The notes: generated from the sequence alone by a model not told the origin. A DNA stretch of 63,976 nt, filler included, from Basidioascus undulatus (GCA_000826855.1; 3 parts of 3 records of this genome joined end to end with filler, not necessarily neighbours in it); one strand, 5' to 3'; shown: positions 21,721 through 50,299, numbered from the whole stretch's first letter. A program made the numbers and translations.

Positions 21721-21820
21721 NNNNNNNNNNNNNNNNNNNNNNNNNNNNNNNNNNNNNNNNNNNNTTAATTAATTAANNNNNNNNNNNNNNNNNNNNNNNN
21801 NNNNNNNNNNNNNNNNNNNN
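21721..21820. other. Artificial contig linker (N44-TTAATTAATTAA-N44)
   Basis: N runs flanking a six-frame stop spacer; identical to the one at 43531-43630. Confidence 0.97.
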
Positions 21821-43530: not shown

Positions 43531-43630
43531 NNNNNNNNNNNNNNNNNNNNNNNNNNNNNNNNNNNNNNNNNNNNTTAATTAATTAANNNNNNNNNNNNNN
43601 NNNNNNNNNNNNNNNNNNNNNNNNNNNNNN
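43531..43630. other. Artificial contig linker
   Basis: N44-TTAATTAATTAA-N44. Confidence 0.97.
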
Positions 43631-44305: not shown

Positions 44306-45842
44306 CGCCCCACTTCCCGCAGTTAAGGGCTCCCATTAACAGCGCCGCCGGCAAGCCTGAATCACAATGCTTGAGCTGCCATTGTCACACGGACTTGGTA
44401 TACTGGTGGACACTATTACAGATTACAGATGTATTAACCGACTTCGCCGAGTACAAAGCTCGGCTTAGGTCTGCGCGGTGGCAAGGACCACTCTGAGCCC
44501 GCCTGCCTGCGGCCCTCCTCCAGCCAAAAACACCTCCCCATACGCCCCTACCCCTGCCCCCACAGAGAGCCTTCGGCCCGTGAACGAGTGCGTGAGGTCA
44601 GGCGGTCGGGGGACGTACCTCCGCTTGTCGTTCCTCTGCCTGTCGTACTTTAAAAGCTGCTTTTTGGTGGGTGCCCCAGATCTATGCAGCAGAGAGCCCT
44701 TGTAGTGTGCGGAGCGGGAAGCCCGGAATATATAGGATCTTCGGGACTAACCGGAGGTAGTATACGCTCCGGCCCAACGGCCACACCGGGCCATCTTGGA
44801 ACAGCGAAACTGCCATGGCCTGCATCGTGTGTACCTTGTCCGGGGGATGTCTGCTTGCTCGAGAAGCGAGCGGGTCATACGTTGGATATCATCACTTGCT
44901 TTTTCCCTAATCGCGCTGTAGTGCCCACATTCCACAAAGACATGATGCTCGTCTTCGACCTCGCCGCAGTGTGGGGCTCGTCTTCAGGCCGCAGGCGGTC
45001 TGCTTCCCACGGTCTAGTTGCCAGTGATCCTGTGCGCGCTTGTAACTGGACCTGGACCTGAGCCGTGTATGCACTGACTGTTCTAGTGTACAGGTATTCT
45101 GGCGGGGCAGTACTGTCGTATAGGCTTGCGTTGACGCGGGACAGGGTTTTTGGCGGGAGGCTGTCTTGCTGCCGAATGGTCATGCAGTGCTGTGTCTAGT
45201 CTTTTATGTTCAACTCAACAAAACCGTCGCGGTCGTGGTAGGGAGTGTATGCGTCCATGTGGAAAGTTGCCCAGGGGACCATCAGAGTGGTGGGCGTGCG
45301 GGCCTGCTTTGCTGCCTGGTCCGCTGCGGCTGCTGCGAGTGCCGGCTCCCCTGTGCGCCTTCTCATGTTGCAGACTTACATGAGGATACCGCTCAGTTAG
45401 ACTTTTCAGCCAACGGTAGAAACTCCGTCTGTAGAGTGTGCCCCAAGTGTACGACAGGAATCCGTGGTCGCTAGCCTCCGCTAAGATGCGGCATGTGTTG
45501 AGTGATCCGTGTGCAGGATGGTGGTGGCGTACCGCTGTGGATTCCTGGCGAGCGGCCGCGTTGAGGCCTCTTCAAGGAGCTGCGAGGGGTACACGTGAAC
45601 GAGTGAGGTGGCAAAGTGGCGCAAGGCTCACTAGAAGGTGCTTTTCAACTCTAGCGAGGTGACTGGCACTGCGCTGTCATAAAGCACGGGATAGTAGATT
45701 AGAGGGGCTCTGACTGACTCAACAGAGTGCGTCAGCCTGTTTGGAGGTGTCCATATTTTGCTTTGCAGTGGTTGAGTAAATGTGAACCTGTGGTTCAAAA
45801 ATAATTTACTGATGTCCGGTCTAATAGCCGGATGGCAGCGAA

Positions 45843-45922
45843 ATGGTGAGGTCGGTTGTTCAATCCAGCCAGGGGGCATCTCAATTGCCCCTTTAGCTCA
45901 GTGGTAGAGCGCGCCACTCGTA
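45843..45922 (+). tRNA. Circularly permuted tRNA-Thr(CGT): 3' half 45843-45878 precedes 5' half 45887-45922
   Basis: Reassembled cloverleaf: acceptor GCCCCTT/AGGGGGC+A73, D arm GCTC-AGTGGTA-GAGC, anticodon stem CGCCA/TGGTG with loop CT-CGT-A|A, variable loop AGGTC, T arm GGTTG-TTCAATC-CAGCC. The break is at the canonical 37/38 position. Confidence 0.9.
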
Positions 45923-45927
45923 CTGTC

Positions 45928-45932
45928 TTTTT
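45928..45932 (+). terminator. Pol III oligo(dT) terminator of the permuted tRNA
   Basis: TTTTT 5 nt after position 37 of the 5' half. Confidence 0.75.
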
Positions 45933-47188
45933 ACTTGTTTTGCAGCCTTCTTTGCTGCTCCTGTAGGTCCAGGCCAGGGTTCTCATTTCCATAATCGAGC
46001 TTCGGGCATGAAGCGTTGATCTATTCAAACTGGCGGGTTGACCGTGATCTTGCGTTGGATTCTTCTGCAAGATAGAAGCTGCGATGGAGTTAAACAAGTT
46101 AATACGTCGGAATGAACAGTCTCCACAGATGCGACAGGTAATCCGAACACATGGGAGTTTTCATCTCATTCCTGCTCTCAAACGACAGAGTGTGTCTGTC
46201 TTGTGTCCACCGAGCTCCTGGGATTCCCTCACGATCATCCTTTTCGACTTCCCGGAAATCATAAATATTGGGTTGCATGCACATGTAGTCTGTATTCAGT
46301 GTGCCCCTATAGGGGGGCAATGTCGTTGCCAGGCTCAACTGCCCTTGAGGCCAGCACCGAAGCTGTTTCCACTAGCGGTTGTAAAGATGGCCGCCTTCCT
46401 TTCCTCCTACATGCAATCCGGACCTTTGACCTGGAACATTCCACGTATTTCCCGATTGATGAACAACCTTCGTGATTGCCTCGTTTCCACAGCTTCAGAC
46501 CGGACTTGCCCGTCCCGATGCGGGCTGGGGCCGCTTCAGTCCGAGTCTCTCTTCCTCCTCGCACAACCTGCCAACCAGCCAGTGAACTTTTGTTGTCGAC
46601 AGTCTTGGTATCAGCTCCAGCGCTCTCCTTTTCGTGCACAAGCGTTCGACATGTGCAGTCTGCTCAAGGTTGCCCTCCCTAAGATATGCGCAGGTAGCTT
46701 AAGCCTGCGATGGATCCTCCTGTCCGAGGTCCAAGTTGGAGTGTTACACCTGCTGTTTGAACGTGCTCAAAGATCCAATGAGTAAACGGCATGCATAGAC
46801 CCTACATTGGATTCCCCTCACGACACAGTGTGTCTGCCGAGCTTCCGTGGTTCACGCCATCACGACCGCCTACTGCACATGCCGCGTGATCTCAATGCAT
46901 TGTACAGACAGAGGTGGTGGTTGCGCAGGACGGTGACCTCAGAAAGAGATGTGAGCAGAAAATACGTGAAAAAGGAAACGGAGAGAAAACATAGGCCCTG
47001 GCCGATATCAAGAGCTTAGGCGCGGGTGGGTGACAGGGAACGGCCGTCGAGATCAGAACAGAGAGCAGGCAAGACCCAGCATGCGCGCGCGCTTGTGGTT
47101 GTTGAGAAAGAGAAAAAGAAAAGGTATTCATAGGCGTGAGAGGAGAAGAAGGAGGAGAGTGTGTTTGAGATTGTGAGATTTTAGACTC

Positions 47189-48689: not shown

Positions 48690-49109
48690 TATGGGCGCTG
48701 CTGTTGGTCGGAGCTTTGTCCCTCCGAAGGACTGAGAGTGCAGCTGGCGGCGAGTGTGCTGGGCGAAGGGGTCGCGACAGGCAGGCGAGGGCAAGCTCGA
48801 AGAAAGAAGCAAGGCGAGTCGCACAGGTCAGCAGCTTTTTTCATGAATCTTGCTCGCCCCGGCTTTCCGCCTCCGCCGTCCGCGAACCTTCGCTGCCAGT
48901 CTGCGCCTGCCTGCCTGCCTTTCTTCCCTTGCCTTCATGCTAGAATTCAATTCAAGGGAATTTATTGCAGCAGAATAATGCAGAATGAAATCATCCAAGA
49001 AGCAAAAAGAAGTGGCTTCCTGACAAGACGGTGGACACTCATGAACAGCCGCCAGCCTGCCCTCGAGCGGGCCTCGGATTCAAGTCCGAGCAAAATTAAC
49101 CAAAAGAAA

Positions 49110-49183
49110 TGGCCACTGCAGGGGTCGAACCTGCGACTTTGGAGTTATTAGCTCCACACTCTAACCAACTGAGTTAAGCGGCC
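49110..49183 (-). tRNA. tRNA-Ile(AAT), intronless
   Basis: GGCCGCTTAACTCAGTTGGTTAGAGTGTGGAGCT-AAT-AACTCCAAAGTCGCAGGTTCGACCCCTGCAGTGGCCA folds to a standard cloverleaf, followed by TTTCTTTT. Confidence 0.95.
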
Positions 49184-50299
49184 AACATAAGAACAATTGA
49201 ATTGAAAATCCATCTTGTGCAGCCATCAAGGGCTTCACGCAGTCCAGTCGGACCCACCAGTTCAGGTGCAGTGACAAGATGAAATGCTCTATTGAGAGTC
49301 TCAATACTAAGATAATCACCTAAAGAACGAATAAAGGTGTTCAGAAAGGAGGTCTGGAGCTGACAGTCAACCAACTCACTGCCTCGCTTTCGTCGGTAAG
49401 CACTGCAGCCTATAGCTTGAAGGTAGACAGAATTTACAACCATACTATTTAACTTAGAGGTGGACCGGTGCTTGGCCGTAGACCGGCCCCGCTTTACTAC
49501 ACATGTGTTGAAACTGCGGTGTGTATGGCTGTGGCAGATTGCGCCAGACTGGGCTGGCAGGAGGAAGCAAAAGTTATTGATCGGCACGGTTTTAATTGAC
49601 TGGAATCCCTTTTGAACATACAGTTCAGAGCTAAATGTGGCAAACTCGGATAAGCACTCTGTGGCATGAACGACCGTTGAGGACTTGGAACGCTGGCAGT
49701 CTTTGGATCGCTTTGTTCAGCGGCGGGGAGCTAAAATACAAATGTCCCATTTTTGGAGAAGAAAAGTCTTCGTAAAGTGTTTGGGAAGTGCGCGAGCTCC
49801 GAGTGAACGAGTGAGGTGGAACGCACAACTCGCATTAGCAGGCGAGTGCATGCATTTAAACCGTGAATGGGTGTGGCTGCTGTCACTCTCTTACAAGCTG
49901 CTCTCCTCTGACCAGGCGTAGTCTTTGGAAATCTAATATTCTCTTCTGGGTAAACATCTCCCGAAGCAGTCAATCAGATTGTTCGTGAAGTCGAGGTTGC
50001 TCCTGCTCGCTGGAGGCGGAAACACAGTCTGCCTGGCTAACGACGCATCTCGTTGATAATGCTGATTCTGAGGAGAGCGGTTCCAAGTTTGATTACCAGT
50101 TTTTGAAGGTAGTTTAAGGTAAATGTTGTTTTTTTGGGAGCGAAACGAAAAGACGGGGTCAAGCTGCTGAAGTACGGGACCGGCCGGCCCTAAAGCAGCC
50201 ATCCGCGGTAGGGCCCTGGAGACCGTCCCGGTCTTCTCCCTTCCCCCCGCACCCTCCATCACTCCTCCTCCCTAGTTTATTCCACCCGCGTCGCTCACC

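Follow-up and report, generated by a model that had tools for sequence, protein, structure and literature searches.

A genuine circularly permuted tRNA-Thr(CGU) gene of type II, with its junction between positions 37 and 38, lies on the third contig of the window, as we call the whole stretch of 63,976 nucleotides analysed here. Its parts follow one another on the plus strand as leader, 3′ half, 8-nt spacer, 5′ half, trailer and T5. The 3′ half (45843-45878, +) comprises tRNA positions 38-72 together with the discriminator A73 and contains the B box, the 8-nt intervening sequence which closes the acceptor stem and in which most of the paralogue differences fall occupies 45879-45886 (+), and the 5′ half (45887-45922, +) comprises positions 1-37 with the anticodon CGT and the native A box. 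Rejoining 45887-45922 (positions 1-37) and 45843-45877 (positions 38-72) gives a 71-nt sequence that forms a perfect cloverleaf at -24.9 kcal/mol and is identified by ARAGORN as tRNA-Thr(cgt). The locus therefore presents both attributes of the type II class, a 3′ half lying 5′ of the 5′ half on one strand and a canonical cloverleaf after rejoining.

Architecture, fold and genomic setting of the permuted gene

Neither ARAGORN nor Rfam calls a tRNA at the permuted locus in the window as written, where tRNA-Ile alone reaches the Rfam threshold; if fungi do possess a family of permuted genes, standard finders would undercount fungal tRNA sets. The native A box TAGCTCAGTGG (45894-45904) matches TRGCNNAGTGG with no mismatch. 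The B-box core GTTCAATC is found at 45858-45865, tRNA positions 52-62 corresponding to 45857-45867; GTTCAATCC at 45858-45866 satisfies the core GTTCRANNC, and positions 52 and 62 of the box differ from GGTTCGANNCC. The coordinates and sequences given for both boxes by the first-pass annotation, as well as those of the leader element, hairpin and A/T run discussed below, proved exact. Inside 45843-45922 there is no run of four or more T, and hence no terminator between the halves, while the trailer (45923-45932, +) consists of CTGTC, the BHB partner, followed by T5, the Pol III terminator.

The RNA fold of 45812-45932 comprises the tRNA body and a leader/trailer helix of GGCAG (45834-45838) with CTGTC (45923-45927), the leader CGA pairing with U33-C34-G35 as a 3-bp helix and 2-nt bulges being placed at both predicted cut sites. 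The MFE structure is the same as the centroid, at -46.2 kcal/mol with z = -3.07, and 2 of 200 shuffles equal it. Leader and trailer thus form a BHB-like junction, albeit of a relaxed motif unlike the strict 3-4-3 form, whose leader strand (45834-45842, +) has its predicted cut at 45842/45843. On this predicted fold the last nine leader bases (45834-45842) are a processing element. Elsewhere in the window an open frame (828-1565, +) carries the tRNA-intron endonuclease catalytic C-terminal domain (PF01974, E 4.3e-09), from the family of enzymes that would be expected to cut a permuted precursor.

A bacterial Y-RNA-like candidate, YrlA, at 45825-45932 (+) was rejected, scoring 21.8 bits (E 0.4) where the gathering score is 69; the weak match arises because the tRNA-like module of YrlA has the same order of T-arm, acceptor and D-arm. 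A scan for bacterial promoters and terminators gave no match and is irrelevant to Pol III.

The window joins three contigs through artificial linkers, with two 44-N blocks around a 12-nt all-frame stop spacer at each of 21721-21820 and 43531-43630; the third contig, from 43631 onward, carries the permuted tRNA. It is intron-rich with few long ORFs. Pfam identifies exons of DNA polymerase alpha, Nup120/160, riboflavin synthase and NIF phosphatase, a tRNA-splicing endonuclease domain and the mitoribosomal protein mL59 (E = 1.8e-32). The Atlas clusters nearest to mL59 are from Ascomycota and Basidiomycota, and those nearest to the polymerase exon are from Basidiomycota. Among solved structures mL59 matches three chains alone, all of mitoribosomes (6ywe, 5mrc and 3j6b), which we take to be those of the Neurospora and yeast mitoribosomes; a homologue search with the mL59 frame gave no match at E <= 1e-5. 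From these protein affinities the host is read as a fungus, probably one of the Dikarya.

A family of permuted paralogues

Two DNA runs, X1 and X2, share 96-97% of the words of the locus, and their contigs, aligned to 44800-47000, reveal four or more additional permuted tRNA genes in the same organism. The count, based on the 20 of 70 contig pieces and the 13 of 27 loose ends listed, is a minimum, and short tRNA-like contigs may have been filtered out as well. X1 records 4 and 5 and X2 records 12, 13 and 14 span 45838/45840 to 45920/45923 with 4-9 differences and 2-4 gaps relative to the locus, while X1 records 6 and 7 span 45850-45909 with 2-3 differences. The pieces thereby cover the 3′ half, the spacer and the 5′ half, with 2-9 differences overall, and the listed differences concentrate in the intervening sequence and at paired positions of the acceptor stem. 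In pair 4-69 C-G is replaced by T-A, in pair 6-67 T.G gives way to either T-A or C-G, and in pair 5-68 G.T takes the place of C-G; a T4-T5 run lies within 10 nt in each of the three distinct loose ends on the trailing side. As judged from these aligned pieces, the locus is one of a family of permuted genes whose ability to fold has been preserved by compensatory changes. The paralogue alignments start at 45833-45840, which makes 45834-45842 the part of the leader common to the family.

The cloverleaf, the BHB-like junction, the A/T run, T5 and the compensatory paralogues together support a selected arrangement, and so lend good support to the original suggestion of selection for expression over a chance scramble. 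Both the gene and its permuted family are real, and they are probably expressed; passage through a circular RNA intermediate to a mature tRNA is predicted, with indirect support from the compensatory changes. No RNA run was among those listed as sharing the words of the locus. A search for orthologous loci, by a metagenome scan with a permuted-Thr(CGT) pattern, returned 48 loci and no relative. These loci were rejected as orthologues, with 7/7 acceptor-stem complementarity across the gap in none of the 48 and 6/7 in six; they resemble ordinary tandem arrays, in many of which CCA is encoded.

Leader sequences and the start of transcription

The statistically solid transcription signals of the locus are an A/T run upstream and T5 downstream, both of which exceed chance. 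The former, a pure 12-nt run (AAAAATAATTTA, 45797-45808), bears out the AT-rich sequence noted earlier before the leader element. It is rare in the window, whose 64 kb contain 15 A/T runs of at least 10 nt, including two artificial linkers; arithmetic from this frequency gives a chance of about 1-2% for such a run within 60 nt upstream. The T5 run (45928-45932) is to be compared with 34 runs of T5 or longer on the plus strand of the window, from which less than 1% is obtained for the chance that such a run falls within 10 nt of where the 5′ half ends. The locus thus possesses the upstream AT-rich/TATA-like element and the downstream T-stretch of type II genes. The wider AT-rich tract with its TTCAA motif (45795-45816, +) is a candidate TFIIIB/TBP (TATA-like) site or start-site region and fits at least as well a TATA-like element of the sort proposed in the literature for permuted tRNA genes in algae.

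Our preferred reading, which we hold at slightly less than an even chance, is that this AT-rich/TATA-like tract and the B box constitute the promoter and that the A-like motif of the leader is incidental. The upstream tract (45795-45816) would bind TFIIIB and recruit Pol III, TFIIIC on the intact B box (45857-45867) would probably assist recruitment, and Pol III would read through both halves to T5. A splicing endonuclease would cut at 45842/45843 and 45922/45923 and a ligase would circularise the RNA, and RNase P and tRNase Z would then open the acceptor stem, removing the 8-nt spacer, if the algal pathway applies (PMC3978253; this paper, PMC3728597, PMC11724288 and PMC4090602 are cited throughout from excerpts). 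The leader 11-mer TAGCCGGATGG would not be a sequence-specific requirement; it would represent a chance or vestigial likeness and at most a landing place for the weakly specific tauA module of TFIIIC, or a weak helper.

This differs from the proposal of the first-pass annotation, in which the 11-mer is the substitute A box of a type-2 promoter. An A-box-like element is indeed present at 45825-45835 (+), with two mismatches to TRGCNNAGTGG. TAGCCGGATGG nevertheless matches only three of the four conserved positions of TNGNNNANNNG, being without the conserved A at motif position 7, and so falls short of an A box with its conserved positions (TRGCNNAGTGG; core T-G-A-G of TNGNNNANNNG). Nor is the match at this single locus any better than chance. 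Both strands of the window hold 275 matches with at most two mismatches, against 306.7 +/- 16.9 in shuffles, of which 98 of 100 reached 275 or more; the plus strand alone matches at 160 of about 63,966 positions (0.0025 per position), a rate that gives a 35-45-nt leader a chance of about 8% of one such match. A second 2-mismatch match at 45836-45846 directly adjoins the first, so that tRNA-related sequence evidently yields A-like matches readily. An exact match to the A-box consensus occurs at 45609-45619 (+), about 230 nt 5′ of the permuted gene, within a GTGAG...CTCAC hairpin and with a T4 run about 25 nt further 3′; chance alone would yield one or two exact matches over the window.

Fungi depend on TFIIIC. 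In yeast the B box governs TFIIIC binding and tauA touches mainly the DNA backbone, while the A box is still needed to place tauA and recruit TFIIIB (PMC11724288), so that a permuted gene without a usable upstream A box is a problem under TFIIIC dependence. TFIIIC-independence of the kind argued for C. merolae cannot be assumed in a fungal-type genome. These considerations favour a surrogate A box, a reading to which we give a clearly smaller though still appreciable probability, in which tauB would sit on the B box, tauA on the leader at 45825-45835 and TFIIIB on the AT tract. The A-then-B order would be restored, the start would lie at about 45806-45816 and selection would maintain the motif, which may be an A box that survived from the upstream member of a tandem pair in an ancestor. 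Such a reading draws on the TFIIIC expected in a fungal-type genome and on the yeast requirement for an A box in TFIIIB recruitment, with tauA as a ruler (PMC11724288).

The geometry of the leader bears on this reading in two opposite ways. The look-alike stands 21 nt (45836-45856) from the B box, which places it outside the 31-93 nt that separate the A and B boxes of natural yeast genes and 10 nt under their minimum (PMC11724288); the ordinary tRNA-Ile(AAU) gene at 49109-49184 (-), our in-genome comparator for promoter geometry (n = 1), has a spacing of 34 nt. Conversely, the AT-rich tract of tRNA-Ile, which also carries TTCAA motifs, extends from -26 to -1 relative to the mature end, or from 33 to 8 nt before its A box, and the AT tract of the permuted gene (45795-45816) lies 30 to 9 nt before the A-like motif, an agreement that a surrogate A box predicts. 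The predicted distance of about 45-60 nt from start to B box is likewise near the estimate for tRNA-Ile, 60-70 nt. On the other hand, tRNA-Ile has no AT-rich element around -30 relative to a plausible start.

The leaders of the paralogues provide further evidence on both sides. Paralogue B (record 3) aligns over 45814-45868 with three differences, none of them listed in 45814-45835, so that hairpin and A-like motif are most likely unchanged there, beside unrelated upstream sequence; a homology starting exactly at 45814 is what a surrogate A box predicts. Four other leaders depart from that of the locus at 45833, 45838, 45840 and 45843, i.e. before the motif is reached, and three of these (starts 45838, 45833 and 45843) have, when read by eye, an A-like 11-mer with two mismatches. 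By the same inspection these 11-mers precede position 38 by 8-23 nt, and one shares the register of the motif at the locus. The fourth leader, a 65%-agreement consensus of two contigs, has a match with three mismatches, or one that overlaps the junction strand. The rough chance of A-like 11-mers in the diverged leaders is 0.001-0.05, according to the number of leaders counted as independent, in an estimate that covers 30 letters of each leader, draws on partly homologous leaders among the 13 of 27 loose ends listed, and uses a test picked after the data were seen. The tRNA-flanking background is, moreover, richer in A-like motifs than the window average, and tRNA-related sequence inflates such matches. 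The conserved A is missing in the motif of the locus and in that of one paralogue, the G is missing in another and one motif is complete, so that among the three paralogue motifs two likewise fall short by one conserved position, which is not the same in both. Such scattered loss is not the pattern expected from selection on contact bases.

A pseudo-A box in the yeast tRNA-His gene, six bases 5′ of the real A box, was no replacement for the real one (PMC11724288), which also counts against a surrogate. Considering this failure together with the chance frequency, the missing conserved A and the short spacing, the central part of the earlier proposal is unproven, and TAGCCGGATGG is not established as a substitute A box.

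Duplication offers a different account of the sequences flanking the gene, one that we regard as improbable. The locus would be the relic of a tandem duplicate of an intron-bearing tRNA-Thr whose outer halves have decayed, leaving functionless fragments on either side, like an A box or D arm upstream and like a T arm or acceptor downstream. A duplication model has been published for permuted tRNA genes (PMC3978253), and in one basidiomycete at least, Cryptococcus neoformans, most tRNA genes (132 of 143) contain introns (PMC4090602). Upstream, a D-loop-like 11-mer at 45766-45776 (+) shares 10 of 11 bases with the native D loop, and downstream a T-stem/acceptor-like 12-mer lies at 45968-45979 (+). 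Both similarities are however marginal, with 105 and 116 respectively of 2969 random window segments scoring equally (about 3.5-4%), and the crossed controls are at chance (3′ half against upstream sequence, 1026/2969; 5′ half against downstream sequence, 1310/2969). Furthermore, the best upstream match is not the A-like element of the leader, and that element is merely 18 nt from position 38, so that the relic account must assume deletions. The combined proposition, that a fungal permuted family survives by a surrogate A box in a transcribed leader which is itself the remnant of a tandem duplicate, giving a hybrid type 2 promoter whose A box is discarded with the leader and whose B box stays in the mature tRNA, we consider rather unlikely.

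The A-like element had also been described as sitting in a hairpin. The inverted repeat TCCGG/CCGGA (45815-45819 and 45828-45832) is present as described, yet it is at chance level, perfect 5-bp hairpins with 3-10-nt loops numbering 584 in the window, or 9.1 per kb. In the RNA fold it extends over 45814-45833 (+) with seven pairs, G-U included, and a 6-nt loop, and it would be present in the RNA solely if transcription starts 5′ of 45814.

Fungal zinc-cluster factors bind inverted CGG triplets, and the CGG-N8-CCG palindrome at 45817-45830 might thus be read as the regulator site of a divergent Pol II gene unrelated to the tRNA. A spliced minus-strand gene does end near 45562-45613, 5′ of the permuted locus. 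We nonetheless judge this reading very improbable, as the palindrome is at chance frequency and paralogue B has the same 22 nt beside different upstream sequence, so that the segment moves with the tRNA unit. The spliced gene is seen in a third run, X3, a contig of which omits 45196-45379 with CT..AC ends, corresponding to a GT-AG intron on the minus strand (45035-45562). X3 therefore behaves like a transcriptome, and the gene is divergent from the tRNA. Depth in X3 stops after the bin 45540-45613 and is zero over 45614-45835, which is uninformative on the expression of a small Pol III RNA. The 112-nt stretch at 45181-45292 has a copy about 82% alike (20 differences) in the same organism, on a different large contig.

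Comparison with known permuted genes and Pol III promoters

To our knowledge, permuted tRNA genes have so far been described only in algae and one archaeon. A literature search on permuted tRNA in fungi and basidiomycetes found, among the papers listed, no report of such fungal genes, and neither PMC8450103 nor PMC4090602 discusses permuted tRNA genes in the excerpts concerned. The fungal setting thus looks new, and the promoter question gains interest from it. Permutation reverses the order in which the A and B halves of the internal Pol III promoter stand, and if the host is a fungus the permuted form exists where TFIIIC is the rule. The loci would then be a natural experiment on the A-box sequence and the A-B geometry needed by TFIIIC, and a fungal permuted family, if true, widens the known range of these genes.

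The closest likeness is to the type II permuted genes of C. merolae, which share the 37/38 junction and a BHB-like junction of leader and trailer (Soma et al. 2007; reviewed in PMC3978253). The spacer closing the acceptor stem measures 8 nt here, against 7-74 nt in C. merolae (PMC3978253), and both have an AT-rich/TATA-like element within 50 bp upstream and a T-stretch downstream (PMC3978253, PMC3728597). The host here is fungus-like, however, whereas C. merolae is a red alga. C. merolae is also reported to be without the TFIIIC subunits that bind the A and B boxes, a lack that is not to be assumed here and that makes the promoter problem of the present locus the sharper. The locus was also considered as the Thr(CGT) gene of C. 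merolae itself, an identity ruled out by the intervening sequence of 31 bp there (PMC3978253), as opposed to 8 nt here, and by the intron-rich window. For C. merolae it has been argued that the inverted A and B boxes are unable to serve TFIIIC and, homologues of TFC1 and TFC3 being missing, that transcription is TFIIIC-independent; a TATA-like sequence within 50 bp 5′ of the 3′ half, together with the T-stretch, has been proposed as the signal (PMC3978253, PMC3728597).

Yeast tRNA-His resembles the permuted locus in having an A-box-like 11-mer upstream of the B box and within the reach of tauA, though its pseudo-A box matches four of the four conserved positions, against three of four here, and coexists with a real A box, which in the permuted gene lies 3′ of the B box (PMC11724288). 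By this analogy the yeast results may be taken to cut both ways, in that an A-like element would be expected upstream of the B box while the look-alike failed in the one case tested.

The yeast genes RPR1 and SNR52 carry their type 2 Pol III promoter elements in a transcribed leader which is later removed. Both are Pol III genes (PMC5095917). Were the leader motif a surrogate A box, the permuted gene would share their logic of Pol III elements in a discarded leader; it differs from them in that the leader here would hold a weak A-like motif alone, the B box being part of the mature tRNA.
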